A stretch of DNA of 64,000 bases from Verrucomicrobiaceae bacterium (GTDB lineage: Bacteria; Verrucomicrobiota; Verrucomicrobiia; Verrucomicrobiales; V1-33), in assembly GCA_027483175.1 (NCBI GenBank), contig JAIXVE010000058.1, positions 7,710-71,709 on the forward strand, read 5' to 3'. Under the pieces are notes generated by a model. That model ran no database searches, had not been told where the DNA came from, and saw only the letters and a program-made list of their open reading frames with translations. The position numbers and the translations under genes are program-made. Below, piece after piece: positions 1 through 64,000 of the stretch. The first letter of the stretch is position 1; every line of letters begins with the position of its first letter.

Positions 1-188
1 TCGACGAGCATGAGGGTGGTGCCGCCGACGAGGCCGAGGGCGCACCAGATGCCCTGGCGGCGGAGAGCGTACCACGTGTCGTGACGCGTTTCTGCGCTGA
101 AGCCTGCGGTACTCAGCTGCATGATGAAGCCGAGGACGGTGAGGAGGATGACGCAGGCGAGGAGGACGAACGGGGCGCGGCGGGACAC
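1..188 (-). CDS. ftsW: SEDS-family cell division protein FtsW/RodA-like, N-terminal fragment running off the left edge
   Basis: Hand translation of the minus strand from GTG at 188 gives VSRRAPFVLLACVILLTVLGFIMQLSTAGFSAETRHDTWYALRRQGIWCALGLVGG. This is a first TM helix plus the RQ..W region typical of FtsW N-termini. It lies at the distal end of the dcw cluster. It is absent from the ORF track because it is open-ended. Confidence 0.6.
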   Translation of the reverse strand, partial: MSRRAPFVLLACVILLTVLGFIMQLSTAGFSAETRHDTWYALRRQGIWCALGLVGGTTLMLV

Positions 189-208
189 GGTGGAGCGGTG
201 CTAGGGTT

Positions 209-1402
209 TCAGCGGCGGACGGGGATCTTGAGTTGTTCGCCGGGGCGGATGACGCTGGAGTCGCTGAGCCCGTTGAGGCGCATGATTTCGCCGGCTGGGA
301 AGCCGTAGCGGCGGGCGACATTGTAGACGGTGTCGCCGCGGACGACGACGTGGGTGCGCTGGCCTGCGGATCTGGCGGGCGTTTCCGCTTTGGGTTTGGT
401 GGCGACGGCGGAGTCGGCGTCGGATTTTTTGGTAGAGGGTTTTGGTGAGGATTTGACGGGAACGGGAGCTTCCTTTGGTTCCGCGGGTTCTGTGCGGACG
501 GATTTTGGTTTGGTGGCCGGGGCGGCCTTGACGACGACGGCGGGTTGTTTCTGGGCGGCCGGTTTCGTGGATGGTTTGGAGGAAGGTTGAGCGGCTGGGG
601 TGACGCGGCGGCCTTTTTCCTGGACCCATGTGTCTGGCTGGCGGGAGGCGACGGCGGTGGGGTCCGGTTCGGCTGGCTGGGCGTGTTCGACTGGCTCGTC
701 CTCCTGAGCGATGGAGTCGGCCGGGTCGGCGGCGGGGTTGGCGGCAGGGGCGGGTGATGGGTCGAAGGGAGCGGTGCGCTGGCTGAGTTTAGCGGCGGGG
801 TCGGCGGTGGAACCGATGACGTGCGGGGCGTCCGGGATGAGGATGCGGGTGCCGGCTTCCCATGAGGCGTCCGGGTTGGCGGCTTCGAGTTGTTCGACGC
901 TGCGTTCGTAGCGGGAGGAGACGAGGAACCGGGTTTCGCCTGGTTGGAGCGTGTGGAAGCTGCCTGGGGTGGAGGCGGCTGGGGCGGCTTCGGGTTCGGA
1001 GACTTCGTCTTCCGGGACGACTTCGGCGCGCGGGATGGGTGGTTCGGCACCTGCGAGGGAGGCGGGGGCACCTTGTCTGGGGAGAGTGGCGAGCTGGGCG
1101 GCGGGTGGCGCGGCGGCGGCGTCCGGGGAGTTAGGGTCGTGGGTGACAGCGCCGGAGTTTTCGCTATCGCGGCCCCACGTATGGAAGGCGAAGAGCCCGC
1201 CGACGGCGACGAGGTGGAGTGCGAGCATGACGACGAAGGCGCGTGACATGCGGATCTGGGGGACCTCGACTTCCCAGTCGTCGGAGGTGCTCATGTGAGC
1301 CGGGAGGCGGTGGGTCCTGCCGAAGCGTTCGGTGATGGCGCCGAAGACGTTTTTGCTGCGGCGGCGGAGAGGCCGGGATTTTTGATCTGGCGGAGTTCTC
1401 AT
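209..1402 (-). CDS. LysM-domain peptidoglycan-binding membrane protein
   Basis: 397-aa ORF with an N-terminal TM helix (AFVVMLALHLVAVGGLFAF) and long Ala/Pro-rich linkers. Two LysM-like segments are present: HTLQPGETRFLVSSRYERSVEQLEAANP...ILIP and HVVVRGDTVYNVARRYGFPAGEIMRLNGL...LKIP. The ATG at 1402 overlaps the murD stop (ATGA). Confidence 0.8.
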   Translation of the reverse strand: MRTPPDQKSRPLRRRSKNVFGAITERFGRTHRLPAHMSTSDDWEVEVPQIRMSRAFVVMLALHLVAVGGLFAFHTWGRDSENSGAVTHDPNSPDAAAAPPAAQLATLPRQGAPASLAGAEPPIPRAEVVPEDEVSEPEAAPAASTPGSFHTLQPGETRFLVSSRYERSVEQLEAANPDASWEAGTRILIPDAPHVIGSTADPAAKLSQRTAPFDPSPAPAANPAADPADSIAQEDEPVEHAQPAEPDPTAVASRQPDTWVQEKGRRVTPAAQPSSKPSTKPAAQKQPAVVVKAAPATKPKSVRTEPAEPKEAPVPVKSSPKPSTKKSDADSAVATKPKAETPARSAGQRTHVVVRGDTVYNVARRYGFPAGEIMRLNGLSDSSVIRPGEQLKIPVRR

Positions 1403-2739
1403 GGTGTGATCAGCTGGTTGACGGATTGGATGAAGGAGTCGCCGCGGTGGTCGTAGCCTGTGAACATGTCGAAGGACGACGTGCCTGGGGCGAAGAGGAC
1501 GGATTGGCCAGGGGAGGCGGCGGCGAGGGCGGCGCGGACGGCGTCGTCGAGGGAGGAGCAGACGGTGCAGGGGACGGCGTGGCCCCAGAGGGCGGCGAGG
1601 CGGGGGCCGATTTCGCCGATGGTGAAGACGGCGGTGGTTTTGGCGGCGATGAGCTGAGTGACGGGGAGATAGTCGAGGCCTTTTTCCTTACCGCCGGCGA
1701 TGAGGACGACCTTATCGTCCATGCCGCGGAGAGCGGATTCCATGGCGTGGACGTTAGTAGCTTTGGAGTCGTTGATGAAGTCGACTCCGTTGACGGAGCC
1801 GGCGGGTTCGCAGCGGTGGCGAGGGGCGGGGATGGACTTGAGGGAGTCGGCCAGGGCGGGGATGGGGATGCCCCATGCGTGGCAGGCGGCCATGGCGGCC
1901 ATGAGGTTTTCGGCGTTGTGGCGGCCGCGGAGCCGTGTGTCGCGCATGGCGAGGACGGGTTGGCCGTGGCGGAGGATGGTGCCGTCGGCGAGGGACCAGT
2001 CGGCGTTCTGGTCCCATGCGGAGAAGGTGATTTTCCGGGCGGGGAAGTCTGGATAGGATTCCGCGGCGTTGACGACGGCGAAGTCTTCCGGGGAGAGGTT
2101 TTCGAAGATGCGAGCTTTGGCGCGGTAGTAGGCGTTGAGGTCCGGGTGGCGGTCGAGGTGATCTTCAGCGAAGTTCATCCAGACGGCGACGTGCGGGTGG
2201 AAGGAGTCGATGAGTTCCAGCTGGAAGGAACTGACTTCGAGGGTGAAGACGTCGAGTGGGGTGTCGGCGAGGACGATGCTGGCGAGGGCGGTGCCGAAGT
2301 TGCCGCAGGGGAGTGTGCGGATGCCGGCGGCGGAGAGAGCGGCGGCGGTGAGGGCGGTGGTGGTGGTTTTTCCGTTAGTGCCGGTGATGGCAATGACGGG
2401 GATGGACGACTGCTGGATGGCGAATTCGATTTCGCTGATGGCCTTGGTGCCGGCGTCGATGACGAGCCTTGCGAGAGGCCATGAGGGGTCGATGGCCGGG
2501 CTGAGGATGGCGAGGTCGAAGCGGGTGGGGCAGGCGAGGGCGGCGGGGCCGGTGAGGGCGTGGATGCCTTCGGAAATGAGGGTGGCGGCGGCGGTGGCGG
2601 CAGCGGGGGAGTTGCCGCTGTCGAGAGCGGTGACATCGGCTCCGAGGCGAGCGGCGAGCCTGGCGGCGGCGAGGCCGCTCTGGCCGAGGCCGAGGACGGC
2701 GACGCGCTGACCGCGGTATTTTCCGGAGGCGGGGATCAC
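1399..2739 (-). CDS. murD: UDP-N-acetylmuramoylalanine--D-glutamate ligase
   Basis: 446 aa. N-terminal Rossmann segment VAVLGLGQSGLAAARLAARLGADV and Mur-ligase P-loop ITGTNGKTTT. Position between mraY and the distal dcw genes. Confidence 0.93.
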   Translation of the reverse strand: MIPASGKYRGQRVAVLGLGQSGLAAARLAARLGADVTALDSGNSPAAATAAATLISEGIHALTGPAALACPTRFDLAILSPAIDPSWPLARLVIDAGTKAISEIEFAIQQSSIPVIAITGTNGKTTTTALTAAALSAAGIRTLPCGNFGTALASIVLADTPLDVFTLEVSSFQLELIDSFHPHVAVWMNFAEDHLDRHPDLNAYYRAKARIFENLSPEDFAVVNAAESYPDFPARKITFSAWDQNADWSLADGTILRHGQPVLAMRDTRLRGRHNAENLMAAMAACHAWGIPIPALADSLKSIPAPRHRCEPAGSVNGVDFINDSKATNVHAMESALRGMDDKVVLIAGGKEKGLDYLPVTQLIAAKTTAVFTIGEIGPRLAALWGHAVPCTVCSSLDDAVRAALAAASPGQSVLFAPGTSSFDMFTGYDHRGDSFIQSVNQLITP

Positions 2740-2749
2740 GGTTAGGGGT

Positions 2750-3901
2750 TCAGCGGAGTTTGAGGGTGGCGAGGCCGATGAGGGCGCACATGAGACTGAG
2801 GACCCAGAAGCGGACGATGACCTGACTTTCCTTCCAGCCTTTGAGTTCGAAGTGGTGGTGGATGGGGGTCATGCGGAAGAGGCGGCGGGGTTCGCCGTAG
2901 AGGCGGCGGGAGATTTTGAACCATGCGACCTGGAGCATGACGGAGAGGGCTTCGGCGACGAAGACGAAGCCGACGATGATGAGGAGGATTTCCTGGCGGC
3001 AGCAGATGGCGACAGCGGCGATGCAGCCGCCGATGGCCATGCTGCCGGTATCGCCCATGAAGACGCGTGCGGGGAAGCAGTTGAACCAGAGGAAGCCGAG
3101 GCAGGCGCCGACGAGGCCCATGCAGACGGGGGCGAGTTCGCCGGCGTTCTGGTTATGGTCGATGAGGAGGAATCTGGCGGCGCCGGCGTGGCCGGTGACG
3201 TAGCAGAAGACGGCGTAGGCGAGGCCGACGGAGACGGTGCAGCCGGCGGCGAGGCCGTCGAGGCCATCGGTTAGGTTGACGGCGTTGGAGCAGCCGACGA
3301 TGACGATGGCGAAGAAGAACGGGGTGAAGTAGCCCATGTGTTCGACTTCGAAGAGTTCCTTCTTGATGAAGGGGAGCTGGAGGTGGTCGAAGTAGTCGCG
3401 CTGGCCTGGGAGTTGCCAGAGCGCGTAGCCTGCGGCGAGGCCGACGACCCATTGGACGACGAGTTTGGTGCGGGCGTTGACGCCTTTGGAGTTTTTCTTG
3501 CTGACCTTGAGGTAATCGTCGGCGTAGCCGAGAGCGCCGAGCCCGAGGGTGACCCCGAGGACGACCCAGAGGAAGGGATTGTCCCAGCGGGAGCAGAGGA
3601 GACTGGCGGCGACGAGGGCGCCGATGATGAGGACACCGCCCATGGTGGGGGTGCCGGCCTTTTTGCCGTGGAGTTCGAAGAGCTTGTGGACTTCTTCGGC
3701 GGTGCGGACGGGCTGACCGATTTTGAGGGAGATGAGTTTGCGGATGACGCGGTCGCCGAGGAGGATGCTGAGGGCGAAGGCGGTGATGCAGGCGGCGAGA
3801 CTGCGGAACGTCTGGTACTGGAAGACGTTAGCGAGTTTGGCGGCGAGGTGTTCCGCGGAGCCGGGAGCGGCCTCCATGAACTGGTAGAAGCGGTAGAGCA
3901 T
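2750..3901 (-). CDS. mraY: phospho-N-acetylmuramoyl-pentapeptide transferase
   Basis: 383-aa polytopic membrane protein with MraY signatures NAVNLTDGLDGLAAG, DTGSMAIGG and PIHHHFEL. Confidence 0.95.
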   Translation of the reverse strand: MLYRFYQFMEAAPGSAEHLAAKLANVFQYQTFRSLAACITAFALSILLGDRVIRKLISLKIGQPVRTAEEVHKLFELHGKKAGTPTMGGVLIIGALVAASLLCSRWDNPFLWVVLGVTLGLGALGYADDYLKVSKKNSKGVNARTKLVVQWVVGLAAGYALWQLPGQRDYFDHLQLPFIKKELFEVEHMGYFTPFFFAIVIVGCSNAVNLTDGLDGLAAGCTVSVGLAYAVFCYVTGHAGAARFLLIDHNQNAGELAPVCMGLVGACLGFLWFNCFPARVFMGDTGSMAIGGCIAAVAICCRQEILLIIVGFVFVAEALSVMLQVAWFKISRRLYGEPRRLFRMTPIHHHFELKGWKESQVIVRFWVLSLMCALIGLATLKLR

Positions 3902-3904
3902 AGG

Positions 3905-5281
3905 TCAGGGCGCGGAGAGGGAGTGGAGGACGCGTTCCATGCCTGCGGAACGGCTGCCTTTGAGGAGGATGAGGTCGTCCGGGGAGGCGGACTGGCGGAG
4001 GAGCGCGGCGCAGGATTCGGCGTCGGGGACGAGGTGGACTTGTGAGGGTGAGCCGCCAGCGGCGAGGAAGCCGTCGGCGATGAGGTGGGCGTCGCCGGAG
4101 TTGACGACGATGAGGAGATTGATGCCTGAGGAGTGGGCGGCGGCACCGGTGCGGCGGTGGCCGTCCGGGGAGTGAGGGCCGAGTTCGCCCATGCGGCCGA
4201 GGACGGCGATGCGACGGCCTTTGGTTTCGAGACCGCGGAGGGTTTCGAGGGCGGCGACCATGGAGTCCGGGTTGGCGTTGTAGGAGTCGTCGAGGAAGGA
4301 GAGGCCGGCGACCGAGCGGAGCTGGACGCGACCGGCGGTTAGGGCGACGTTGGCGAGACCGTCGGCGATGGCTTCGGCTGGGATGCCGTGGGACCAGCCG
4401 GCGGCGGCGGCGAGGGCGGCGTTAGCGGCCATGTGGCGGCCGGGGAGGGCGAGGGAGGCGGGGGTGTGCTGACCGTCCGGGAAGTGGAGGTGGAAGCGTG
4501 AGCCTTCTGGAGAGGCGGTGAGGTTTTCGATGCGGATATCGCCGATGCCGATGCCTGCGGTGAGGATGCGGGCGGAGGTGCGGGAGATGATGAAGGGGGT
4601 GAAGTCGTCCGAGGCGTTGAGGATGACGGTGCCGTCCGGGGCGATGGCGGAGGCGAGGGCGCTTTTTTCGAGGGCGATGCCTTCGCGGGAGCCGAGGTGT
4701 TCGATGTGAGCGGTGCCGATGTTGGTGATGATGGCGGTCTGGGGAGCGGCGATGGCGGCGAGGGGGGCGATTTCGCCGTGATGGTTCATGCCCATTTCGA
4801 CGACAGCGGCGGCGTGTTCCGGGTTGATGGCGAGGAGAGTGAGGGGGACGCCGATGTGGTTATTGAGATTGCCTTTGGTGGCGGCGGTGGGGAACTGGCG
4901 TGAGAGGATGGCGCTGGTGATGTCCTTTGTGGACGTTTTGCCATTGCTGCCGGTCAGGCCGGTGATGCGGCCGGCCCAGACCCGGCGCCATGAGGCGGCG
5001 AGCTGCTGAAGAGCGGCTAGGGAATCGTGGGCGAGGATGACGGGGAAGCCGTCGGGGACGTCGACCGGGCGGGAGGCGAGGATAGCGGCGGCCCCGGCCT
5101 TGACGGCGTCGGCGGCGAGGGTGTGGGCGTCGAAGCGTTCACCGGCGAGGGCGACGAAGAGGGCGCCGGGGGGAAGGGAGCGTGTGTCGGTGGAGACGGA
5201 GGAGACGATCGCGTCGGTGGGGCCCGAGCTGAGCGTTCCGCCGGACCATGCGGCGACTGTGGCGGCGTCGATGGGTTTCAT
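3905..5281 (-). CDS. murF: UDP-N-acetylmuramoyl-tripeptide--D-alanyl-D-alanine ligase
   Basis: 458 aa. P-loop GLTGSNGKTSTKD and the DDSYNANPDSM motif. dcw order is murE-murF-mraY. Confidence 0.92.
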   Translation of the reverse strand: MKPIDAATVAAWSGGTLSSGPTDAIVSSVSTDTRSLPPGALFVALAGERFDAHTLAADAVKAGAAAILASRPVDVPDGFPVILAHDSLAALQQLAASWRRVWAGRITGLTGSNGKTSTKDITSAILSRQFPTAATKGNLNNHIGVPLTLLAINPEHAAAVVEMGMNHHGEIAPLAAIAAPQTAIITNIGTAHIEHLGSREGIALEKSALASAIAPDGTVILNASDDFTPFIISRTSARILTAGIGIGDIRIENLTASPEGSRFHLHFPDGQHTPASLALPGRHMAANAALAAAAGWSHGIPAEAIADGLANVALTAGRVQLRSVAGLSFLDDSYNANPDSMVAALETLRGLETKGRRIAVLGRMGELGPHSPDGHRRTGAAAHSSGINLLIVVNSGDAHLIADGFLAAGGSPSQVHLVPDAESCAALLRQSASPDDLILLKGSRSAGMERVLHSLSAP

Positions 5282-6804
5282 CTGTCGTGGTCGCGCTGGG
5301 ATGGGCGTGAGCGGTCGGGCATGACCCAGTTGCGGAGGATGGATTGAGCGACTTTGACGTCGTCGAAGGGGAGCGTGAAGTTGCCGACGATCTGGCCTTG
5401 TTCGTGGCCTTTGCCGGCGATGAGGACGACATCGCCGCCGCCGGGGCGAGCGCCTGCGAGGTCGATGGCGCGGGCGATGGCGGCCTGGCGGTCCGGGATG
5501 ATTTCGCAGCGGTCGCCGCGCATGCCGGCGCGGATCTCTGCGAGGATGGCTTCGGGGTTTTCGGAGCGCGGGTTATCGCTGGTGAGGATGGTGTAGGTGG
5601 AGAGGGATTCGGCGGCTGCGCCCATGAGCGGGCGTTTGGAGCGGTCGCGGTCGCCGCCGCAGCCGAAGACGGTGATGATGCTGCGGGGTTCGAGTTCCTT
5701 GATGGTGCGGAGGGCGTTTTCGAGGGCGTCTGGGGTGTGCGCGTAGTCGACGTAGACGCGGAAGGGTTTGGCGTCGGCGACGCTCTGCATGCGGCCGGGA
5801 ATTTGGGGGGCGCGGAGGATGCTGGTGATGGCTTCGCGGAGATTGAGGTCCATGGACCATGCGGCGGCGAGAGCGCCGAGGACATTGAAGACGTTGAAGC
5901 GGCCGATGTAGGGAGTGCGGACGAGGAATTCGCGGCCGCGGGCGTGGAGAGTGAACTGGGTGCCCTGGATGGAGACGCGGATGGCGGAGGCGCGGAAGTC
6001 GGCCTGGACGCCCATGCCGAATTTGAGGACGGGGAGACGGCCTTCGAGGGAGCGGGCGAGGCGTTTGCCCCATGGGTCGTCGATATTGATGACGGCGGTG
6101 GGTTTTTTGGGGCCGCCCTGGGAGATGAGGTGTTCGAAGAAGGAGGCTTTGGCCATGAAGTAGTCCTCCATGGTGCCGTGGTAGTCGAGGTGGTCCTGGG
6201 TGAGGTTAGTGAAGATGGCGGAGTCGAAGCGGATCCCGTGGACGCGGGATTGGGAGAGGGCGTGGGAGCTGACTTCCATGGCGACGCCCTTGCAGGCGTT
6301 GGCGCGCATTTCGGAGAGGAGACGCTGGAGGGCGATCCAGTCCGGGGTGGTGTGTGAGGAGGGGAGTTGGCCGAGACCGGTGTCGTATTTGACGGTGCCG
6401 AGGAGCCCGCAGCGGCCGCGGGCCTGAGTGACGAGGTGCTGGAGGATGAAAGCGGTCGTGGTTTTTCCGTTAGTGCCGGTGACGCCGGAGACGAGCATGG
6501 CGTCGGAGGGACGGCCGTAGTAGACGTCGGCGGCTTCGGCGACGGCCTTGCGGCTGTCGGGGACCTGGAGCCATGTATCGCGGTAGAGTTCCGGGACATC
6601 CTGTTCGGCCATGATGGCGGAGGCGCCGGCTTCGCGGGCTTTGGAGATGAAGTCGTGGCCGTCGGCTTTTTCGCCGCGGATGGCGGCGAAGAGCGTGCCT
6701 TCGGCGACCTCGCGGGAGTCGACGGAGATGGCGTTGATTTCGCGGTCGAGAGGACCGAAGGTGCTGACGCGCTGGACGCCTTCGAGGATTTCTTTGAGGT
6801 TCAT
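5278..6804 (-). CDS. murE: UDP-N-acetylmuramoyl-L-alanyl-D-glutamate--2,6-diaminopimelate ligase
   Basis: 508 aa. P-loop VTGTNGKTTT, DYAHTPDALENAL, and a DNPR motif (TSDNPRSENP) typical of meso-DAP-adding MurE. It has 4-nt overlaps with both neighbours. Confidence 0.93.
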   Translation of the reverse strand: MNLKEILEGVQRVSTFGPLDREINAISVDSREVAEGTLFAAIRGEKADGHDFISKAREAGASAIMAEQDVPELYRDTWLQVPDSRKAVAEAADVYYGRPSDAMLVSGVTGTNGKTTTAFILQHLVTQARGRCGLLGTVKYDTGLGQLPSSHTTPDWIALQRLLSEMRANACKGVAMEVSSHALSQSRVHGIRFDSAIFTNLTQDHLDYHGTMEDYFMAKASFFEHLISQGGPKKPTAVINIDDPWGKRLARSLEGRLPVLKFGMGVQADFRASAIRVSIQGTQFTLHARGREFLVRTPYIGRFNVFNVLGALAAAWSMDLNLREAITSILRAPQIPGRMQSVADAKPFRVYVDYAHTPDALENALRTIKELEPRSIITVFGCGGDRDRSKRPLMGAAAESLSTYTILTSDNPRSENPEAILAEIRAGMRGDRCEIIPDRQAAIARAIDLAGARPGGGDVVLIAGKGHEQGQIVGNFTLPFDDVKVAQSILRNWVMPDRSRPSQRDHDR

Positions 6805-9163: not shown

Positions 9164-9177
9164 GGGAGTGGGAGGGT

Positions 9178-10194: not shown

Positions 10195-10298
10195 GAAAAG
10201 CTGGCAGAGGAGCGGGTTGAGAAAGAGAACTTAGAAGTTAAGTCTTCGGAAATTTCGGTCAATCGGAATAGAAGAAACCGCGGTAATTATGGTTTTTG

Positions 10299-10360
10299 TG
10301 CGAAAGTGGTTTTAGTTAAGATTTGCGAAAGATCAATGTTTTTCCCGGTTTTTTGCGAAA
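10299..10360. promoter_or_regulatory. three direct TGCGAAA repeats in the AT-rich divergent rsmH / bamD-like intergenic region (candidate operator/promoter element)
   Basis: TGCGAAA occurs at 10299-10305, 10324-10330 and 10354-10360, each preceded by a T-run (consensus TTTGCGAAAG). The spacings are 25 and 30 nt. The function has not been tested. Confidence 0.3.
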
Positions 10361-10426
10361 TGGGGTGGGGGAGAGGGTGTGGGTGGAGTGGCTTGACGGC
10401 TGGGAAAGGTCTTTTATAGTTCGCCG

Positions 10427-50755: not shown

Positions 50756-50770
50756 GGCGATTTGTTTGTG

Positions 50771-52267: not shown

Positions 52268-52276
52268 TTACGGAGC

Positions 52277-53224: not shown

Positions 53225-53229
53225 CGATT

Positions 53230-55933: not shown

Positions 55934-55941
55934 GGGAAGAG

Positions 55942-58900
55942 TCAGGGGGAGACGAGGAAGGCGTCGCTATTGAGGATGGCACGGATGGTGACGACGGCGG
56001 CGGCGACGGAAGGAGGGTCGAGGTTAGGGGTGTGGGGGGCGGTGCCGGTGGATTTGAGGAGAGCGGCGGCCTGATCCGGGTGGGCTTGGTAGTGGAGGAG
56101 AGAGTCGGAGAAGAGCGAGGCGAGGGCGGATTGCTGAGTGGGCGAAGGATTGCCAGAGGTGAGGCGATGCCATGCGGTGGCGGCGAGGGCGGAGGCGTCG
56201 GGCGGGGAGGGAGAGGCGGCGAGGAGTTTTTCAGCGAGGACTCGGGCGGCTTCGAGGATGCCGGTATCGTTCTGGAAGGCGAGGGACTGGAGAGGAGTGA
56301 GGGTGGAGTCGCGGCGGACCTTGCAGAATTCGCGGGTGGGGGCGTCGAAGACTGAGAGGAGAGGAGGCGGGCAGGTGCGGCGCCAGAACGTGTAGAGACT
56401 GCGGCGGTGAAGACTTGGGCCGGAATCCGGCGTGTAGGAGTGCTGCGTGCCGCTTTCTTCCCAGAGCCCTTCGGGTTGCCATGGTTTGACGCTAGGGCCG
56501 CCGATGGTGGGGACGAGGAGACCGGAGGCGGCGAGGGCGGCGTCGCGGAGTTGTTCGGCGGGGAGACGGAAGCGCGGGCCGCGGGCGAGGAATTGGTTAG
56601 ATGGGTCGCGGGCGAGGGAATCGGGGGAGATGGCGGAGCTGCGGGCGAAAGTCTGGGAGAGGGCGATTTCGCGGCAGAGTGCTTTGACGTTCCAGCCGGA
56701 CTGGACGAAGTGGACGGCGAGCCAGTCGAGGAGTTCGGGGAGTGCTGGGGGTTGGCCCTGGAGACCGAAGTCTTCCGGGGTGGGGACGAGGCCTGAGCCG
56801 AAGAAGGCGGACCAGATGCGATTGACGGCGACGCGGGCGGTGAGTGGGTGGTCCGGGTGGGTGAGCCATTGGGCGAGACCGAGCCGGTTGGGAGCGGAGT
56901 TGTCAGGGAGCGGGAGGAGGACGGACGGGACCCCGGGTTGGACGGGATCGCCGGGCTGGCGGAAGTCGCCGCGGTTGAGGATGGGCGTGGGGCGGCGCGG
57001 GCCTTTGGGTTCGCGCATGACCATGACCTCGGTGAGCGGGATGGTGAAGTCGTTTTCGGCGCGTCTGGCATCGGCTAGTTTTGTGAGGGCGGCGCGGTAG
57101 TCGGGGTCGATTTCGCGGAGGAACCAGTCGAACCATGCGGGATCTTCGGGTTGGGTGCCTGCGAGGAGGGCCATTTCCGCGGTGGAGAGGGCGGCGGGGT
57201 AGAAGCGGAGTTCGTCGATGGCTCCGGAGCGGAGACTGGCGTCGAGCGTGCGGGAGCCTAGTGTCAGGGTGACTGGGTCTGCGTAGTCGGCGTCGGCGAC
57301 GCGCATGGAGTCGAGATCGCCCCATGCTTCGAGGTAGGTGATGTCGCGGGTGAGGTGGTCGCGGATGATGGTGACGGGTTGGGGGATGCCGTCGAGGAAG
57401 AGGGACATGCCTGCGGCGCGGGAGGAGCCGTCGTAGGAGAAGCCGATGTGGTGCCAGTTGGAGAGGTCGGGGGAGTCTTTGAGTTGGATGCGGATGGCGT
57501 TGCCTGGGTAGAAGTGGGCGAGGGTGGCGGTGAGTTTACCGTTTTCGAAGGTGATTTCGTAGCCACGGTTGGCGGCGTCGAGGCCTGCGCGGGAGTGGTG
57601 GAGGAGGACCCCGCGGTCTGGGGGTGAGGGCATTTTGAGCCAGAAGGAGAGGGAGAACGGCTGGGAGCGGGTGACGCTGCCGGTGGCTGGGAGCGTGATT
57701 TTTCTGGGGAACGTGGCGCACCAGCCGAAGCGGCCCTCGCGGTTGGCGGCTCCGTTGATGGTGGTTTCGGTGAGGACATCGGGGCGGGAGTCGGCGATGA
57801 GACGGCGGTCGCGCGGGTCGAGGAAATCGAAGGAGAGGTGCGTGGAGGGAGCGGGGAGAGAGTGAGGGCGGCGCGCGGAGGGGGAGGTTAGGGCGTTCCA
57901 GAGACCTTCAGGGGAACCGGGAGGAGAATTGGCGGCGAGCCATGAGGTGAAGCGCGGTTGGGCGGCGGCGCGGGTGGCGGCGAGGTGTTTTTCAGCGGCG
58001 GTGATGGCGGCGAGGAGGGACGCGTGGGTTTCCTGCTGCTGGTCTTTGTAGGCGAAGGTGGAAGGCGAGGGGATGCCGTTGGAGTAGCGGGCGAAGAGCC
58101 CGAGTTCGTCGATGTTATTGAGGTAGGCGGCGAACTGATAGTAATCCCTTGTGGAGAAAGGGTCGTATTTGTGGTCGTGGCAGCGGGCGCATTCGAAGGT
58201 GAGGCCCATGAAGGCGGAGGAAGTGGTGTGGACGCGGTCGAAGACCTGGTCCCAGCGGTATTCGTCGGGGTCGCTGCCGGATTCGTTGGACTGGACGGGG
58301 AGACGCTGGAAGGCGGTGGCGAGGATCTGGTCGGTGGATGCGTCAGGGAGGAGATCGCCGGCGACTTGCCATGTGATGAACTGGTGGTAGGGGAGATTGT
58401 TATTGAAGGCGCGGATGACCCAGTCGCGCCATGGCCAGACGGTGGAGTCGGCGTCTTCGTGGCGGCCGTAGGTATCGGCGAAGCGGGCGGCGTCGAGCCA
58501 GTCGGTGGCCATGCGTTCGCCGAAGGCAGGGGAATTGAGGAGTTGGTCGACGAAGGCGCTGCGGGCGGCTGGGGAGGGATTGGCGATGAAGGCGGCGGCG
58601 GCGGCGGGTTCGGGCGGGAGGCCTGTCAGGGCGAAGGACGTGCGGCGGAGCCAGTCGGAGGGAGAGGCGGGCGGGGCGAGGGGGAGGTTGCGGGTGGTGG
58701 CGGCGGCGCGGATGAGAGAGTCGATGGGGTGTTCGTCTTTGAGAGGAGCTGGGAGGGGCGGTGATTGCGGGGGGATGAAGGCCCAGTGTTTTTCGTAGGG
58801 AGCGCCTTGGGAGATCCAGCGTTCGAGGAGGGAGATGTCGTCGGGGGAGAGGGCGGCGTGTTTTTCTGGTGGGGGCATGACCTCATCGGGGTCCGAGTGG

Positions 58901-59148
58901 CGGATGCGCTGGATGAGGTGGCTGGCGGAAGGGTTGCCGGGGACGATGGCGGAGGCGGCGATGGCGTTGTCGCGGAGATCGAGGCGGAGGTCGGCCTTGC
59001 GGGCGTTGGAGTCGCTGCCGTGGCAGGCGAAGCATTTGGAGGAGAGGAGCGGGCGGATGGCGAAGTTGTAGGAGACGGGGGGGGCGGGTTCCGACCGTGC
59101 GGCGGCGGCGAGGAGGAGGGAGGAGAGGACGAACGGGAGGCGAGGCAC
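55942..59148 (-). CDS. PSCyt1 (CxxCH) / DUF1549 / LamG-like insert / DUF1553 protein
   Basis: 1068 aa with a signal peptide. Supporting segments are CFACHGSDSNARKADLRLDL (planctomycete cytochrome-c motif), the DUF1549 region (DWLRRTSFALTGLPP), CARCHDHKYDPFSTRDYY and the DUF1553 C-terminus (REFCKVRRDSTLTPLQSLAFQN). A central segment of about 200 aa resembles a concanavalin/LamG fold (WHHIGFSYDGSSRAAGMSLFLDG). Confidence 0.88.
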   Translation of the reverse strand: MPRLPFVLSSLLLAAAARSEPAPPVSYNFAIRPLLSSKCFACHGSDSNARKADLRLDLRDNAIAASAIVPGNPSASHLIQRIRHSDPDEVMPPPEKHAALSPDDISLLERWISQGAPYEKHWAFIPPQSPPLPAPLKDEHPIDSLIRAAATTRNLPLAPPASPSDWLRRTSFALTGLPPEPAAAAAFIANPSPAARSAFVDQLLNSPAFGERMATDWLDAARFADTYGRHEDADSTVWPWRDWVIRAFNNNLPYHQFITWQVAGDLLPDASTDQILATAFQRLPVQSNESGSDPDEYRWDQVFDRVHTTSSAFMGLTFECARCHDHKYDPFSTRDYYQFAAYLNNIDELGLFARYSNGIPSPSTFAYKDQQQETHASLLAAITAAEKHLAATRAAAQPRFTSWLAANSPPGSPEGLWNALTSPSARRPHSLPAPSTHLSFDFLDPRDRRLIADSRPDVLTETTINGAANREGRFGWCATFPRKITLPATGSVTRSQPFSLSFWLKMPSPPDRGVLLHHSRAGLDAANRGYEITFENGKLTATLAHFYPGNAIRIQLKDSPDLSNWHHIGFSYDGSSRAAGMSLFLDGIPQPVTIIRDHLTRDITYLEAWGDLDSMRVADADYADPVTLTLGSRTLDASLRSGAIDELRFYPAALSTAEMALLAGTQPEDPAWFDWFLREIDPDYRAALTKLADARRAENDFTIPLTEVMVMREPKGPRRPTPILNRGDFRQPGDPVQPGVPSVLLPLPDNSAPNRLGLAQWLTHPDHPLTARVAVNRIWSAFFGSGLVPTPEDFGLQGQPPALPELLDWLAVHFVQSGWNVKALCREIALSQTFARSSAISPDSLARDPSNQFLARGPRFRLPAEQLRDAALAASGLLVPTIGGPSVKPWQPEGLWEESGTQHSYTPDSGPSLHRRSLYTFWRRTCPPPLLSVFDAPTREFCKVRRDSTLTPLQSLAFQNDTGILEAARVLAEKLLAASPSPPDASALAATAWHRLTSGNPSPTQQSALASLFSDSLLHYQAHPDQAAALLKSTGTAPHTPNLDPPSVAAAVVTIRAILNSDAFLVSP

Positions 59149-59319
59149 GGCGCGTCGAATGGTGGAGACTGTTGGTTTTGAGGATGAAACTAATGGTGAG
59201 ACGATGCAAATGGCAAGACTAGCGGTGGGTTGCGTGGGAGTGGTGGTGGGGTGTGGGGTTGGGATTTGAGGGTGGCGGGGGGAAAGCGGGCTTGCGCTGG
59301 GCGTGGGTTGTGCTTAAAT

Positions 59320-59336
59320 TTGTAGCCTTGACTACA
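59320..59336. promoter_or_regulatory. candidate operator TTGTA-N7-CTACA upstream of the permease-repressor fusion gene
   Basis: TTGTAGCCTTGACTACA contains the inverted repeat TGTAG..CTACA. It lies 46 nt upstream of ATG 59382 and matches the pattern at 52251-52267. Confidence 0.3.
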
Positions 59337-59381
59337 GGGCGACGACAACTGGAAAAGCTGAGGTGGCGAGGGCTGCCGGGG

Positions 59382-60755
59382 ATGTCTGTGTGGCGGTGGT
59401 TTGGGTGGGTGGTTGGGTTGGTGGGGGTGATGATGTTGAGTGGGTGTGGGGTGGTGAGTGGGGAGCGGGCGGTGGATTTTGTGATGTTGAGGGACGGGCA
59501 TGTGCGTGCGGCGCTGCCTGGGGTGGTGCTGCTGGGGTTGAACTGCGGGTTGCTGGGGACCCTCCTGATTGCGCGGCGGCTGACGATGTTAGGGGACACC
59601 CTGTCGCATGCGGTGCTGCCGGGGATAGCGGCGGGGTTTTTGTGGACGATGACGAAGCATCCGGCGGCGCTGCTGTGCGGGGCGCTGGTGACGGGGGTGT
59701 TGAGCAGTCTGGTGACGGGGTGGATCCTGGGGACGACGCGGTTGAAGGCGGATGCGGCGCAGAGCGTGGTGCTGACGGTGTTTTTTGCGGCGGGGATTGT
59801 GATGATCAAGCTGCTGCCGGATGGGACCAAGGCTGGGTTGGATCGGTTTCTGTATGGGCAGGCGGCGGCATTGGATGCTGGGGAGACGATGCTGCTGGCG
59901 GTGGCTGCGGCGTTGTCGGTGGTGGTGATCTGGTGGGGGTATCGCGGGTTTCTGGTGTTGTCGTTTGATCCAGGGTATGGTCGGGCGGCGGGGTTGCCGG
60001 TGAAGGGATTTCATCTGCTGCAGATGTTTCTGACGACCTTGGCGGTGGTGGTGTCGATGCAGGCGGTGGGGGTGATTCTGGTGGCTGGGCTGCTGGTGAT
60101 TCCCGGGGCGACGGCGTGGTTGTTTTCGGCGCGGTTGCATCGGGTGCTGGTGCTGGCGGCGCTGCTGGGGATGGCGGCTGCGGTGATGGGGACGTTTCTG
60201 TCGTTTGCGGGGGATGGGATGGCGATGGGGCCGACGCTGGTGTTGTGTGCGGGGGTGATGTTTGGCGGGGCGTTTCTGCTGAGTCCGCGGTATGGGATGG
60301 CGCGGCGGATGGTGTCGGTGCTGCGGCACGGGAGGCGGGTGAGGCGGGAGGATGGGTTGAAGGGTGTGTATCGTGTGCTGGAGGATCGGGGGTTCAGCGG
60401 GGCTGGGTTCAGGCTGGAGGAGAGCGGGTTGAGCGAGCGGATGGTGAGGTCGCTGGAGCGGCGGGGGATGGTGCGGTTTGTTAGTGGTGGCGGGTGGGAA
60501 CTGACGGAGAGAGGGTTTGGAGAAGCGGCGCGGGTGGTGAGGAATCACCGGTTGTGGGAGTTGTACCTAACGCGGCGGGCGGGGTTTGCGGAGGATCATG
60601 TGCATGATGCGGCGGAGGAGATGGAGCATCTGCTGGCGGAGGAGAACATTGCGCACCTGATGGGGGTGCTGGGGCATCCGGATCGGGATCCGCACGGGAG
60701 GCGGATACCGAGGGCGGGGGACACGATTGAAACGAGTGCGGCGCGCCATGAATGA
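59382..60755 (+). CDS. metal ABC transporter permease fused to a C-terminal DtxR/MntR-family repressor domain (YtgC-YtgR-like)
   Basis: About 457 aa from ATG 59382. The N-terminal ~300 aa form a ZnuB/TroC-type permease (LGDTLSHAVLPGIAAGF; LLVIPGATAWLF). The C-terminal ~140 aa are DtxR-like (RNHRLWELYL...HVHDAAEEMEHLL...LGHPDRDPHGRRIP). Confidence 0.85.
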   Translation: MSVWRWFGWVVGLVGVMMLSGCGVVSGERAVDFVMLRDGHVRAALPGVVLLGLNCGLLGTLLIARRLTMLGDTLSHAVLPGIAAGFLWTMTKHPAALLCGALVTGVLSSLVTGWILGTTRLKADAAQSVVLTVFFAAGIVMIKLLPDGTKAGLDRFLYGQAAALDAGETMLLAVAAALSVVVIWWGYRGFLVLSFDPGYGRAAGLPVKGFHLLQMFLTTLAVVVSMQAVGVILVAGLLVIPGATAWLFSARLHRVLVLAALLGMAAAVMGTFLSFAGDGMAMGPTLVLCAGVMFGGAFLLSPRYGMARRMVSVLRHGRRVRREDGLKGVYRVLEDRGFSGAGFRLEESGLSERMVRSLERRGMVRFVSGGGWELTERGFGEAARVVRNHRLWELYLTRRAGFAEDHVHDAAEEMEHLLAEENIAHLMGVLGHPDRDPHGRRIPRAGDTIETSAARHE

Positions 60756-61707
60756 GCTGATGACAGGATTTGGCGGGTTGATGGTGCCGCGGTTTGACGT
60801 GGAGGAAGTGCTGATTGCGCCGTGGACGAGGTATGCGGATGCGACGGTGTGGATGGTGCTGATGGCGGTGCTGCTGGGAGTGCCGTGTGCGCTGCTGGGG
60901 AATTATCTGATGTTGCGGCGGATGGCGCTCGCGGGAGATGCGATCAGTCACAGCGTGCTGCCCGGGCTGGTGATTTCCTATCTGATTTTCCGTGATCTGG
61001 GGACATTGCCGATGATGGGGGGAGCGATGGTGGCGGGACTGGTGACGACGGTGCTGATTGAGTTCATCACGGGGCGGAGCCGGTTGAAGACGGATGCGGC
61101 GATGGGGATCACGTACACGACCCTGTTTGCGCTAGGGATGTTTCTGGTGAACCGGTATGCGGGGCGGGTGCATCTGGATGCGGACTGCGTGCTGTTCGGG
61201 GAGCTGGAGTATGTGCCGCTGGCGGAGCCGTCGGGGTTGCGGGTGGGGCGTCTTGGTGCGGTGCCGATGCCGGTGGTGATTGCGGGCGGGATGGCGGTGG
61301 GGACGGTGGGATTGCTGATGGTGTTTTCGAGGTGGCTGCTGGTGACGTCGTTTGATGGCGGGTTTGCGCGGTCGGTGGGGATCCGGGCTGGGGCGGTCCA
61401 TTATGGATTGATGGCGTTGTTGTCGGTGGTGGTGGTGACGGCGTTGGAGAGTGTGGGGTTGCTGGTGGCGGCGCTGCTGGTGCTGCCTGGGGCGACGGCG
61501 CAGTTTTTTGCGCGGCGGATGGGGCGACTGCATGGATTGGCGGTGGTGTTTGCGGTGACGGCGAGTGTGGCGGGGATTCACCTTGGGGCGTGGTTGAACT
61601 GTCCGTCGGCGGCGGCGATTGCGCTGGCGGGCGGGGCGCAGTTTGCGGTGGCGTGGGGGGTATCGGTGTGGCTGCGGGGGAGAGCGGTTGAGGGAGTGGC
61701 GGGATGA
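60748..61707 (+). CDS. metal ABC transporter permease (ZnuB/TroD/YtgD-like)
   Basis: The start is at ATG 60748, overlapping the upstream stop (ATGAATGA). Supporting segments are ALAGDAISHSVLPGLVISY and LLVLPGATAQFF. About eight or nine TM helices. Confidence 0.88.
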   Translation: MNELMTGFGGLMVPRFDVEEVLIAPWTRYADATVWMVLMAVLLGVPCALLGNYLMLRRMALAGDAISHSVLPGLVISYLIFRDLGTLPMMGGAMVAGLVTTVLIEFITGRSRLKTDAAMGITYTTLFALGMFLVNRYAGRVHLDADCVLFGELEYVPLAEPSGLRVGRLGAVPMPVVIAGGMAVGTVGLLMVFSRWLLVTSFDGGFARSVGIRAGAVHYGLMALLSVVVVTALESVGLLVAALLVLPGATAQFFARRMGRLHGLAVVFAVTASVAGIHLGAWLNCPSAAAIALAGGAQFAVAWGVSVWLRGRAVEGVAG

Positions 61708-61752
61708 GTTCCGGGTTGCAAACGGGGGAGGGTGCCGTGAGTGGGGCTGGCT

Positions 61753-62634
61753 ATGTCCGAAACACCGAAACTCAAGCTCGGGCTGCCGAGCGGCAGTCTG
61801 CAGGAACCGACGCTGGCTTTGCTGGAGCGAGCTGGTTACAGCATTACGGGGGCGGCGCGGAGTTACCGGCCGGCGGTTGATGATCCTGAGATTGAGATCC
61901 GGCTGCTGCGGGCGCAGGAGATTGGCCGGTATGTGGACCACGGGTTTCTGGATGCGGGGATTACGGGAAGGGACTGGGTGATTGAGAACGGGGCGGATGT
62001 GGAGTACATCTGCGAGCTGCCGTATTCCCGGGCGACGACGCGGCCGACGCGATGGGTGCTGGTGGTGCCGGAGGATTCGGAGATTCAGACCGTGCAGGAT
62101 CTGGAAGGGAAGCGGATTGCGACCGAGGCGGTGGGATTGACGAAGCACTATCTGGATAAAAAGGGTGTGAAAGCGGAGGTGGAGTTTTCGTGGGGCGCGA
62201 CGGAGGTGAAGGTGCCGGAATTGGTGGATGCGATTGTGGACATTACGGAGACCGGGTCGTCATTGCGGGCGAACAAGCTGAGGATTGTGGACACCCTGAT
62301 GGAGAGCTACCCGCAGTTGATTGCGAGTCGGAGGGCGGCGGCGGATCCTTGGAAGCGTGCGAAGATTGACCGGATTGCCTTGCTGGTGCAGGGGGCGCTG
62401 AATGCGCGTGGGAAGGTGGGATTGAAGATGAATCTGCCGAAGGCGAAGCTGGATGAATTGGTGACGAGCCTGCCGAGCCTGCGGCGGCCGACGATTGCGC
62501 ATCTGACGGATGCGGATTGGCTGAGCGTGGAGACGGTGATTGATGAGTCGGTGGTGCGGGAGATCATTCCGACGCTGAAGGCTTTGGGTGCGGAGGGAAT
62601 CATTGAGTATGCGCTGAACAAGCTGGTGCATTGA
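61753..62634 (+). CDS. hisG: ATP phosphoribosyltransferase (long form)
   Basis: Supporting segments are [48 protein letters not shown] and [14 protein letters not shown]-terminal regulatory domain is present. Confidence 0.9.
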
Positions 62635-62674
62635 GTCGGGGATTGAGGAGACGTTAGAACAGGAGACAGCGAGC

Positions 62675-63502
62675 ATGGCTGAAGCGATTCCCGGGCTGGC
62701 GGTGCATACGATCACGACGAAGCCGTGGCCGGTGGAGCGTTGCATTGACGAATATGCGGCGGCTGGGGTGAGTGGGATCACGCTGTGGCGGCGGGATTTC
62801 GAGCGATTGCCTGCGGCGGCGGTGGGGAGGCGGGTGAGGGAGGCTGGGTTGGAGTGCTGCGGGTTGGCTCGTGGGGGCTTTTTTCCGGCGGTGGAGGCAG
62901 CGGGGAGGAGAGCGGCGGTGGAGGACAACTTGCGGGCGATTGACGAGGCGGCGGCGTGTGGTGCGCCGGTGCTGGTGCTGGTGTGCGGGGCGGTGCCTGG
63001 TCAGCCGCTGGCGGAGAGCCGGAAGCAGATTGCGGAGGGGATTTCGGAGTGTGTGGGTCATGCGCGGGCGGCTGGGGTGAAGCTGGCGATTGAGCCATTG
63101 CATCCGATGTATGCGGGTGACCGGAGTGCGGTGGTGACGATGGGGCAGGCGAATGATCTGTGTGACGTGCTGGGATCGCCTGCGGAGGTGGGGATTGCGG
63201 TGGATGTGTATCACACGTGGTGGGATGCGGCGCTGGAGGTGGAGATTGCGCGTGCGGGAGAGGCGGGGCGGTTGTTTTCCTATCATGTGTGCGACTGGCG
63301 GCTGCCGACGGAGGATCTGCTGAATGACCGCGGGCTGATGGGGGAGGGGTGCATTGATCTGGCGGGGATTCGGGGGATGATGGAGCGGGCTGGGTTTACG
63401 GGGCCGAGCGAGGTGGAGATTTTTTCGGACCGGCGGTGGGCGCAGGTGCAGGAAGTGTGGCTAGAGGAAGTGGTGGCGGCGTGGGTGAGGCACTGCGGGT
63501 GA
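62675..63502 (+). CDS. sugar phosphate isomerase/epimerase (xylose-isomerase-like TIM barrel)
   Basis: 275 aa. LAIEPLHP, DVYHTWWD and the terminal EVEIFS pattern are typical of AP-endonuclease-2 / TIM-barrel family proteins. Confidence 0.75.
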   Translation: MAEAIPGLAVHTITTKPWPVERCIDEYAAAGVSGITLWRRDFERLPAAAVGRRVREAGLECCGLARGGFFPAVEAAGRRAAVEDNLRAIDEAAACGAPVLVLVCGAVPGQPLAESRKQIAEGISECVGHARAAGVKLAIEPLHPMYAGDRSAVVTMGQANDLCDVLGSPAEVGIAVDVYHTWWDAALEVEIARAGEAGRLFSYHVCDWRLPTEDLLNDRGLMGEGCIDLAGIRGMMERAGFTGPSEVEIFSDRRWAQVQEVWLEEVVAAWVRHCG

Positions 63503-63562
63503 GATGACGAAGATTTCTGCGGAGGGATCCGTTGACAAAAGCAAATAACAAATTCCAGCACT

Positions 63563-64000
63563 ATGCGAACAATCGGGATCATCATGAATGGCGTTACGGG
63601 TCGGATGGGGACGAACCAGCACCTTGTGCGGTCGGTGGCGGAGATTATCCGTCAGGGTGGGGTGAGGGTTGGTGGGGAGACGGTGATGCCGCGGGTGGTG
63701 CTGACGGGGCGGAGTGAGGAGAAGCTGCGGGCGTGTGCGGAGAAGGCGGGTGTGCCGGTGGAGATGAGCACGGATCTGGCGTCCGTGCTGGCGCGGCCGG
63801 ACATGGAGGTGTTTTTCGATGCGAGCGGGACCTTGTACCGCGGGCAGTTTGTGGATGCGGCGGCGGCGGCGGGGAAGGCGATTTACTGTGAGAAGCCGAC
63901 GGCGACGAATCTGGAGGAAGCGCTGCGGCTGGCGCGGGTGGCGGAGAGTGCGGGGGTGAAGAACGGGGTGGTGGCGGACAAGCTGTGGCTCCCGGGGATC
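63563..64000 (+). CDS. Gfo/Idh/MocA-family oxidoreductase, N-terminal part running off the right edge
   Basis: Hand translation from ATG 63563 gives MRTIGIIMNGVTGRMGTNQHLVRSVAEIIRQGG...VFFDASGTLYRGQFVDAAAAAGKAIYCEKP. This is a Rossmann G.(I/M)G.G..G plus the EKP motif. It is absent from the ORF track because it is open-ended. Confidence 0.75.
   Translation, partial: MRTIGIIMNGVTGRMGTNQHLVRSVAEIIRQGGVRVGGETVMPRVVLTGRSEEKLRACAEKAGVPVEMSTDLASVLARPDMEVFFDASGTLYRGQFVDAAAAAGKAIYCEKPTATNLEEALRLARVAESAGVKNGVVADKLWLPGI

Follow-up and report, generated by a model that had tools for sequence, protein, structure and literature searches.

Gene content of the window

The 64,000 nucleotides of contig JAIXVE010000058.1 that were analysed here, and that are called the window, carry ordinary chromosomal genes on both strands, as recognized by Pfam. 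What sets this DNA apart is a strand asymmetry. Over the full length (1–64000) the given, or plus, strand is rich in G and poor in C, with a GC skew, defined as (G – C)/(G + C), of +0.39 that reaches 0.85–0.87 at four-fold degenerate sites. The bias is about ten times the usual bacterial level and holds for genes of either orientation, which are consequently best presented together with the codon dialect in which each group is written.

On the minus strand, the dcw cluster (murD, mraY, murF, murE, the gene for an ftsI-type penicillin-binding protein and rsmH/mraW, assigned by Pfam; 1399–10194) uses a dialect of codons ending in C or A, with a GC skew at third codon positions (GC3 skew) of –0.69 to –0.81 when read on the coding strand. 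A second minus-strand block (22337–32428), in a C-ending dialect, comprises tatC, argH, nifU with a cysteine desulfurase gene, pheS, rplT, rpmI, an open reading frame (ORF) of 458 amino acids without assignment and a GHL10 gene. The same C-ending dialect is found in the minus-strand DUF1501 and PSCyt1/PSCyt2/PSD1 genes (54515–59148), with coding GC3 skews of –0.71 and –0.76.

The plus strand, which also encodes lptE, recO and several hydrolases, carries from 37971 to 54021 the genes of an MBL-fold protein, a DUF5050 protein, a Lon-N protein, an AstE-like protein, a 3-keto-disaccharide hydrolase, fabF, two Metallophos proteins, a TPR protein, a lactonase, znuA and an ABC ATPase. They are written in a dialect of codons ending in G or T (GC3 skew +0.62 to +0.79), and the run is broken by a single minus-strand gene, for a polyprenyl synthase (40603–41685), with a coding GC3 skew of –0.75. 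Two ABC-3 permease genes, the first of which also specifies a DtxR-type metal-binding domain, are found with hisG and a TIM-barrel gene at 59253–63502 (plus strand, G-ending dialect, GC3 skew +0.67 to +0.82). Finally, a plus-strand segment at 17662–22189 encodes a TPR protein of 683 amino acids, a carbamoyltransferase and an SxtJ-like ORF (skew 0.46, GC3 skew 0.80–0.86).

The families represented in the window (PSCyt1/2/3, PSD1/2/4 and DUF1501, by Pfam) and the closest ArgH matches indicate a bacterium of the Planctomycetes, Verrucomicrobia and Chlamydiae group. Among the matches listed, ArgH is closest to that of a Prosthecobacter metagenome-assembled genome (MAG; 69% identical) and of a Verrucomicrobiaceae MAG (66%). 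Closer relatives, labelled Verrucomicrobiota or Verrucomicrobiales, are present in NCBI, JGI, ENA and Logan assemblies. By these sequence affinities, the window belongs to a Verrucomicrobiales chromosome, and the gene content, judged from Pfam, looks free-living.

Size of the strand asymmetry

The given strand contains 28,422 G, 12,436 C, 10,573 A and 12,569 T, which corresponds to a GC content of 63.8%, a GC skew of +0.391 and an AT skew, (A – T)/(A + T), of –0.086. G is thus 2.3 times as frequent as C, parity is missed by 79 standard deviations, the G excess amounts to 0.25 per nucleotide and purines make up 61% of the strand. The sign is uniform. All 32 windows of 2 kb have positive skew (range 0.18 to 0.49), and so do all 636 windows of 500 nt (mean 0.389, minimum 0.022 at 12.9 kb). 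Outside every candidate gene, the DNA of the window has an overall skew of 0.43. Sequence motifs follow the same polarity, with 68 G-quadruplex motifs on the G-rich strand and none on the other, and 252 homopolymer runs of at least five G as against six of C.

For comparison, a control set of 80 loci of about 4–21 kb each from diverse bacterial genomes has a median absolute GC skew of 0.05 and a maximum of 0.21, and the typical bacterial G excess is about 2.5% per nucleotide (SkewDB, PMC8941118), a tenth of the 25% measured here. Across 7,738 assemblies, a higher GC content generally goes with a smaller skew (10.1101/176370). The initial annotation had described the given strand as G-rich and C-poor in either gene orientation, with values far above usual bacterial ones, on the basis of hand counts in five 60-nt lines; these counts are all reproduced exactly, and the computation over the whole window places the skew outside the ordinary bacterial range. 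The annotation went too far for the intergenic spacers, which are G-rich as stated (skews 0.50–0.70) but not almost C-free, with C contents of 11–17% (7/64, 23/132, 12/126 and 16/152). One of these, the spacer cited as 43205–43330, is overlapped by a G-rich stretch with C-free AAATAGT heptamer repeats (43144–43330, plus strand), where skew is 0.75. Among the controls, two of about eleven unrelated verrucomicrobial loci (L004 and L008, each 0.19) rank in the top five of the 80 for absolute skew, which hints at a wider tendency across the phylum.

Strand-specific codon usage and amino acid composition

Whether such a skew belongs to the DNA strand or to transcription can be read from genes of opposite orientation, a comparison that was limited to the 39 Pfam-supported genes (24 on the plus strand, 15 on the minus strand). 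Third positions of plus-strand genes are G.657, C.108, T.186 and A.049, while those of minus-strand genes, read on the coding strand, are C.718, G.112, A.111 and T.058. Expressed on the given strand, third-position skew hardly differs between plus-strand (+0.72) and minus-strand genes (+0.73), in agreement with the orientation-independent asymmetry first proposed. Of the residues that the given strand has at four-fold degenerate sites (n = 9,803), 81% are G for either gene orientation; C makes up 5.6% at those of plus-strand genes and 6.8% at those of minus-strand genes, from which skews of 0.87 and 0.845, respectively, and a G:C ratio of about 12–14:1 follow. Equality of the skew in both gene orientations implies that it belongs to the DNA strand and not to transcription.

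This comparison bears on transcription-associated skew and on the Firmicutes pattern of gene orientation, where G enrichment attaches to the coding strand and most genes share one strand. A small component of the skew does follow the coding strand: codon position 1 shows an excess of G on it for genes of either orientation (+0.34 and +0.04), and T exceeds A mainly in plus-strand genes. Nevertheless, with four-fold skews that are alike in both orientations, such an origin has next to no likelihood. Transcription-coupled or orientation-linked skew (Firmicutes/PolC type) is refuted by a minus-strand coding GC3 skew of –0.73 and by a share of only 54% of codons on the G-rich strand (8,968 versus 7,775; 53% over the window and two further loci of relatives, L172 and L175). 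Skew that tracks the direction of transcription was therefore not what was found.

The codon sets of the two strands are almost disjoint. Valine is encoded by GTG in.90 of cases on the plus strand and by GTC in.97 on the minus strand, alanine by GCG (.86) versus GCC (.83), leucine by CTG and TTG (.88) versus CTC (.94), isoleucine by ATT (.67) versus ATC (.98), glutamate by GAG (.86) versus GAA (.86) and lysine by AAG (.90) versus AAA (.77). These tables bear out the earlier description of two dialects, one of G- and T-ending codons on the plus strand and one of C- and A-ending codons on the minus strand. The strings quoted as the start of fabF and the end of murD are not found verbatim in the window, where only fragments such as GGGAATGAT occur, although the codon preference that they were meant to illustrate is correct.

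Codon positions 1 and 2 carry a strand component of about 0.15–0.17 that is added to the usual coding-strand pattern, so that protein sequences are affected too. Val, Gly, Met and Glu are enriched 1.7–1.8-fold in plus-strand genes, and Ser, Pro, Gln and Ile are commoner in minus-strand genes, Pro and Ser by about 1.6-fold. The difference in amino acid usage by strand (chi-square 551, 19 degrees of freedom) is confounded, as the two gene sets differ in function; comparison of orthologues among lineages gives a shift in the same direction.

A skew of this size creates long shadow ORFs on the opposite strand, by which gene finders are misled. The explanation of shadow ORFs by skew had been put forward in the initial annotation, and it fits the public gene calls of two related contigs, in which tatC is replaced by a long opposite-strand ORF. 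More generally, public calls in the clade either swap tatC for a long opposite-strand ORF without Pfam match or fragment it (L082, 11405–12880; L083, 2483–3982; L180, about 14270–16160).

Relatives and age of the skew

Thirteen contigs of the skewed clade from eleven samples (JGI, ENA and NCBI), 91–96% identical in DNA to the window, have absolute skews of 0.31–0.38. Their ArgH proteins are 96–99% identical for a DNA identity of 91–96%, and the differences are mostly synonymous. In two other genome regions of clade members, skews are –0.34 (L172) and –0.38 (L175), and the two strands there again use opposite codon dialects. The L35 protein, in identical form, has entries in 155 blocks of the assembly collection, which indicates that the clade is widespread. 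These data are decisive against a sequencing, assembly or base-damage artefact, for which no evidence was found and the odds are negligible: reading frames are intact, Pfam matches are strong in both orientations and the differences from relatives are mostly synonymous. The artefact is refuted by the occurrence of the same skew in assemblies of at least eleven samples from three sources (JGI, ENA and NCBI).

Outside the skewed clade the asymmetry fades in steps. In a lineage whose ArgH is 80% identical (L084–L086), skew is near 0 and GC3 skew ranges from –0.07 to 0, with values of 0 to –0.05 for argH and tatC. A lineage with ArgH 83% identical (L089–L091, L173 and L174) has locus skews of about –0.07 to –0.13 and a fixed-strand GC3 skew of 0.17–0.38 in 10 of 13 genes, in both orientations. 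Orthologues hold their orientation relative to the G-rich strand across lineages, and in seven of them the sign is conserved while absolute GC3 skew passes from 0.17–0.33 in the 83% lineage to 0.67–0.83 in the skewed clade. Positions 1 and 2 shift likewise in most orthologues (–0.08, –0.15 and –0.26 at position 2 of ArgH; 0.15 to 0.31 at position 1 of UDPGP). By these sequence comparisons, the skew is recent and graded in origin.

Within L173, a contrast between the regions 1–7700 and 7900–21401 stands out: fixed-strand GC3 skew is positive (+0.10 to +0.22) in the first two complete genes (PSD1 and LamG3) and in a dioxygenase gene, and negative (–0.17 to –0.38) in the other ten. DNA may have been inverted or acquired here, or a switch of replication may lie near 8 kb of this locus.

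Young DNA is unskewed. Insertion sequences in clade members have near-zero skew against a background of –0.4 (ISL3 transposase, L087 17358–18623; Transposase_mut, L081 20932–21404), which marks them as recent arrivals. A scan of metagenome contigs located near-identical ISL3 copies on three short, weakly skewed contigs. In the window itself, an island at 12500–14250 combines low skew (0.05–0.18) with low GC content (49–55%) and holds ORFs without family match; it is probably DNA acquired recently, whose composition the skew has yet to reshape. These and the other hypothetical ORFs have no match in Pfam, PADLOC or PHROGs, except for a NADAR gene described below. The 4.5-kb segment at 17662–22189, which has the highest skew in the window, is lacking in all relatives with sequence across the junction, even in the nearest one (96% identical). 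Either it came from inside the skewed clade or relatives lost it repeatedly.

Substitution spectrum and sequence context

The direction of ongoing change was examined by piling 12 loci onto window coordinates 22,478–36,284 and 38,077–40,410, so that the minus-strand block at 22337–32428 was aligned across 11 clade members. With two near-duplicates dropped, a neighbour-joining tree of 11 taxa was used to polarise changes by Fitch parsimony, and 723 changes were assigned a direction in this manner, over 2,159 four-fold sites. For each type of change, the rate per site on the G-rich strand was divided by that of the complementary change, with plus- and minus-strand genes pooled. Asymmetry is significant for five of the six complementary pairs (p between 9e-3 and 6e-19). 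The ratio is 5.2 for C>G versus G>C (95% confidence interval 3.7–7.3), 3.5 for C>T versus G>A (2.4–4.9), 3.0 for T>G versus A>C (1.8–5.3), 2.8 for A>G versus T>C (1.8–4.5) and 1.8 for C>A versus G>T (1.1–2.8), and T>A versus A>T (0.84) is not significant. Analysis of plus- and minus-strand genes on their own shows the asymmetry of C>G, C>T and A>G in each set, but that of C>A and T>G in minus-strand genes only. A caveat applies to all these ratios: rare bases change at 0.2–0.6 per site across the tree, so that parsimony misassigns some changes, with the probable effect that the asymmetry is underestimated.

The equilibrium of the rate matrix (G.70, C.11) predicts a skew of 0.72 as compared with 0.82 observed, which implies that the asymmetric substitution is still running. 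The largest contributor is the asymmetry between C>G and G>C, since making this pair symmetric lowers the predicted skew from 0.72 to 0.36, while doing the same for C>T and G>A lowers it only to 0.63. In the textbook view, cytosine deamination is the main driver of skew; here C<->G transversions lead instead.

Sequence context was assessed by G:C ratios conditional on neighbours, as counts of trinucleotides versus their reverse complements had to be discarded, the neighbouring bases being skewed too. At four-fold sites, the G:C ratio is 31 after T and 34 before A, and 7–9 next to G, in both gene orientations. Rates of G loss are two to three times higher when the residue is flanked by G (0.28–0.29 per site) than beside A or T (0.11–0.14), and this faster loss beside G explains the equilibrium context pattern. 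Instability of G-runs, or their avoidance, caps the skew locally. Changes per C site, from small counts, are 0.48 after T (11 at 23 sites), 0.80 after G (72 at 90) and 0.66 after C.

These data permit a judgement on a single-strand DNA cytosine deaminase (APOBEC, SsdA or DddA type) that would act on exposed template and cause the loss of C. The 3.5-fold asymmetry of C>T, and the rarity of four-fold C after T and before A, are what such an enzyme would produce. However, the context pattern is accounted for by the faster loss of G next to G, the changes of C show no excess at TC, the predicted skew depends much more on C>G and G>C than on C>T and G>A, and no deaminase gene occurs in the DNA examined. 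The explanation is accordingly given a very small probability. Its TC-specific form (APOBEC/DddA-like, 5′-TC) is not supported, given the lack of TC preference among C changes in these small counts.

The main rival to mutation as the source of the asymmetry is a fixation bias favouring G on one strand. Mutation would then be roughly symmetric or directed away from G, and selection or a strand-directed biased repair or gene-conversion-like process would favour G. Several observations agree with it: the raised substitutions include all three types that create G, which goes beyond one chemical pathway, loss of G is faster in GG contexts, and for each change towards G there are about two away from it (192 versus 377), on tip and internal branches alike. 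This imbalance may mean that skew is off equilibrium, that a fixation bias opposes mutation or that parsimony creates an artefact at saturated rare-base sites, and it is expected from parsimony at the rare-base rates given above. Intergenic DNA is skewed as well, and we know of no selective agent that would act on about 80% of four-fold sites in opposite directions on the two strands. On balance, a fixation bias is considered unlikely, though less so than any of the other rivals.

Sign change along the chromosome

The window is single-signed throughout, and the behaviour of the skew over longer distances was followed on contig Ga0621872_00014 of a relative (2,641,627 bp, JGI; 92–94% DNA identity). 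Its forward-strand skew is +0.33 at 349–375 kb, in the argH region, and –0.34 at 1,176–1,197 kb, a second position reached via the radical-SAM gene that adjoins argH in the sister lineage and then via its orthologue cluster. Both regions carry ordinary chromosomal genes in both orientations, and the switch of sign falls between 0.37 and 1.18 Mb. Such a change fits two replichores, as expected, and would mark an origin or terminus. The whole-genome check of skew called for in the initial annotation is thereby answered in part: opposite signs exist at 0.36 and 1.19 Mb of the relative's 2.64-Mb contig.

A second long contig of the same sample (Ga0621872_00004, 3.35 Mb) was found via a riboflavin-synthase probe and contains L175 at 710–731 kb, with a skew of –0.38. 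Each single-copy gene checked lies on only one of the two contigs, which may be pieces of one genome of about 6 Mb or derive from two related species.

An asymmetry without switch is known from Candidatus Chazhemtobacterium aquaticus Ch65 of the candidate phyla radiation (CPR), where G accounts for 14.97% and C for 29.83% of the bases (PMC7143001), shares that work out to a skew of 0.33. Ch65 is an outlier among 17,873 complete genomes (PMC11514846), and the absence of any sign switch over its whole 0.8-Mb chromosome was read as unidirectional replication (PMC7143001). By analogy, replication in the present clade could be unidirectional or very unequal, or the skew could be unrelated to replication, and the sign change could stem from an inversion or an assembly join. 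The precedent is of similar magnitude, the window and every clade locus are single-signed, and one switch interval only was found. On the other side, the two values on Ga0621872_00014 are equal in size and opposite in sign (+0.33 and –0.34), 0.8 Mb apart on one contig, in regions of ordinary chromosomal genes in both orientations; a switch is present where Ch65 has none. One-directional asymmetry of this kind is thus quite improbable, at about the same low level as the deaminase.

Proposed origin of the asymmetry

The explanation that we consider probable is a lineage-specific, greatly amplified, replication-linked mutational asymmetry in a clade of uncultured Verrucomicrobiales bacteria. Strongly strand-asymmetric substitution would drive gain of G and loss of C irrespective of gene direction, such that one strand of each chromosome arm would be enriched in G and depleted of C at every weakly constrained site, and genes on the two strands would drift into opposite sets of synonymous codons and partly different amino acid compositions. 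Two components can be envisaged. In the first, excess misincorporation of dGTP while the G-rich strand is made (G opposite G, T or A) would yield C>G, A>G and T>G; alternatively, these changes could result from mutagenic bypass of lesions on the complementary template. In the second, ordinary deamination of cytosine while the G-rich strand is single-stranded would yield C>T. Under both components, the G-rich strand would have the sequence of the leading strand and serve as lagging-strand template. The cause would be a lineage-specific change in replication or repair.

Several points weigh against this explanation. The outflow from G noted above is about twice the inflow, and the joint rise of the three G-creating types is also what selection or biased repair favouring G would yield. 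The sign switch is documented by two points of a relative's contig and not in the window's own genome, and an inversion or a misassembly could mimic it. That the G-rich strand is the leading-strand sequence is an assumption taken over from bacteria in general, and the gene-strand bias of 53% is too weak to decide the matter. The initial annotation made the lagging-strand position of the dcw cluster, rplT/rpmI and pheS conditional on that rule. These genes have the C-rich strand as coding strand, and with standard polarity they would be transcribed head-on to replication, which is unusual for such genes. The polarity may instead be inverted, with the C-rich strand as the leading one, which would agree with the direction of the dcw and ribosomal-protein genes. 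Lastly, the orthologues compared between skewed and unskewed lineages include no replication or repair gene.

A more far-reaching version of the proposed mutational asymmetry, advanced tentatively, is that the replication or repair machinery changed recently and thereby created the strongest cellular strand asymmetry found, mainly through C<->G transversions and with living intermediates (synonymous skews of 0, 0.3 and 0.8). Candidate changes are a polymerase that misincorporates G or bypasses lesions on one strand, lost repair against G:C>C:G transversions and very long exposure of single-stranded template.

Comparison with known systems

Bacterial leading strands reportedly have G in excess over C and T in excess over A, with sign switches at origin and terminus, as described by Lobry in 1996 and by Grigoriev in 1998. 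The asymmetry presented here resembles this classical skew in the fixed-strand excess of G over C, the weaker excess of T over A, its presence at synonymous and intergenic sites, its independence of gene direction and the sign change seen on a relative's contig. It departs from it by a G excess of 25% instead of 2.5% (PMC8941118), by its occurrence in a genome of 64% GC and by the lead of C>G versus G>C instead of C>T. Within the systems compared, it would be the strongest strand compositional asymmetry found for any cellular chromosome.

Strand-specific codon usage is said to have been described by McInerney in 1998 and Lafay in 1999 for Borrelia burgdorferi, Treponema, Chlamydia and Buchnera. 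Genomes of the Borrelia type are small, AT-rich and host-associated, and have much weaker third-position skews. A further case is Lawsonia intracellularis (PMC2671203). As with the replication strand in all these organisms, strand is the main determinant of synonymous codons in the window and shifts amino acids too; unlike in Borrelia-type genomes, the codon sets are almost disjoint and the genome is high in GC.

Ch65, together with related UBA1400 Microgenomates, is the closest precedent found for the magnitude of the skew. The likeness lies in a very large disparity of G and C with little disparity of A and T, which gene distribution does not explain. However, Ch65 is a CPR bacterium of 45% GC, in contrast to a verrucomicrobium of 64% GC with a skew of 0.39, a switch on the contig of a relative and a trait that arises stepwise in sister lineages.

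Vertebrate mitochondrial DNA has comparably extreme four-fold skew, with C>T and A>G raised on the same strand, which is attributed to deamination of single-stranded DNA. Its heavy- and light-strand asymmetry goes along with strand-displacement replication (reviewed in PMC3269012). C>T and A>G are both raised on the same strand here as well. Besides the organellar setting and the other mode of replication, the difference is that asymmetries of C>G and T>G are at least as strong in the present case, and that 61% of the strand is purine.

Full-text searches of one literature library, including 'GC skew' combined with Verrucomicrobia or Verrucomicrobiota, retrieved no description of such a skew there. 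The phenomenon itself is of a known kind; it stands apart by its magnitude in a high-GC genome that looks free-living, by a sign switch absent from Ch65, by the lead of C<->G transversions and by the living intermediates.

Other features of the window

Scans of the 64-kb window with Rfam and for tRNAs gave no match. C-free tandem heptamers (GATTTGA, GAAGTGA and AAATAGT, 2.4–6.6 copies), all written on the G-rich strand, occur at 33498–33527, 36232–36261, 37273–37296, 43138–43205, 49582–49599, 50908–50938 and 52155–52200; they are intergenic and each lies at the 3′ end of a plus-strand gene or just beyond it. An element that contains a hairpin and has the core GCGCGAGTACRKAGYCTCGCGTGCCCGG is dispersed over the window in five copies (14451–14478, 14587–14614, 37564–37591, 37816–37843 and 50794–50821), all five on the plus strand for a chance expectation of 0, and two pairs of copies lie within larger repeats with spacings of 136 and 252 nt. 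The element has no Rfam match, and its copy in a relative (L081, 15811–15838) keeps the orientation relative to the G-rich strand. A dispersed repeat (GCGCGAGTAC...) was unsuitable as a genome-wide probe, with only one other copy among the loci compared.

Some genes deserve mention on their own account. The NADAR-domain gene at 15937–16569 (Pfam E 2.5e-53) is recognized as well by PDC-M42C, a candidate-defence model of PADLOC (E 1.7e-40); the gene is located in a strain-variable stretch of about 14.8–17.7 kb (83–95% identical among relatives) and is followed by two overlapping ORFs without assigned function. TatC (22337–23953) is unusually long, with 538 amino acids in the window and 545–578 in those relatives whose gene call has a Pfam match. 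Large insertions are implied by the distribution of the 208 positions of the Pfam profile across residues 30–358. Finally, 45539–47035 and 47155–48648 are tandem paralogues of the Metallophos family, purple-acid-phosphatase-like, whose first 300 nt are 72% identical.

Significance

The cause of bacterial GC skew is debated, as to the respective parts of mutation and selection, of deamination and polymerase error, and of the fidelity of leading- and lagging-strand synthesis, partly because the usual signal amounts to only a few per cent. In the present clade the signal is about tenfold larger, saturates synonymous sites and is of such recent origin that public metagenomes still contain sister lineages in which skew is absent or intermediate, which makes the clade a natural experiment on the cause of strand bias. 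From the replication and repair genes of these sister lineages, together with spectra of rare variants, it could become clear which specific biochemical change underlies strand asymmetry. In practice, gene callers choose opposite-strand shadow ORFs in this clade, and composition-based binning and codon-adaptation indices would tend to see the two strands as two organisms. For the bacterium itself, the mRNAs of the two strands differ strongly in composition, and the proteome is split by strand.

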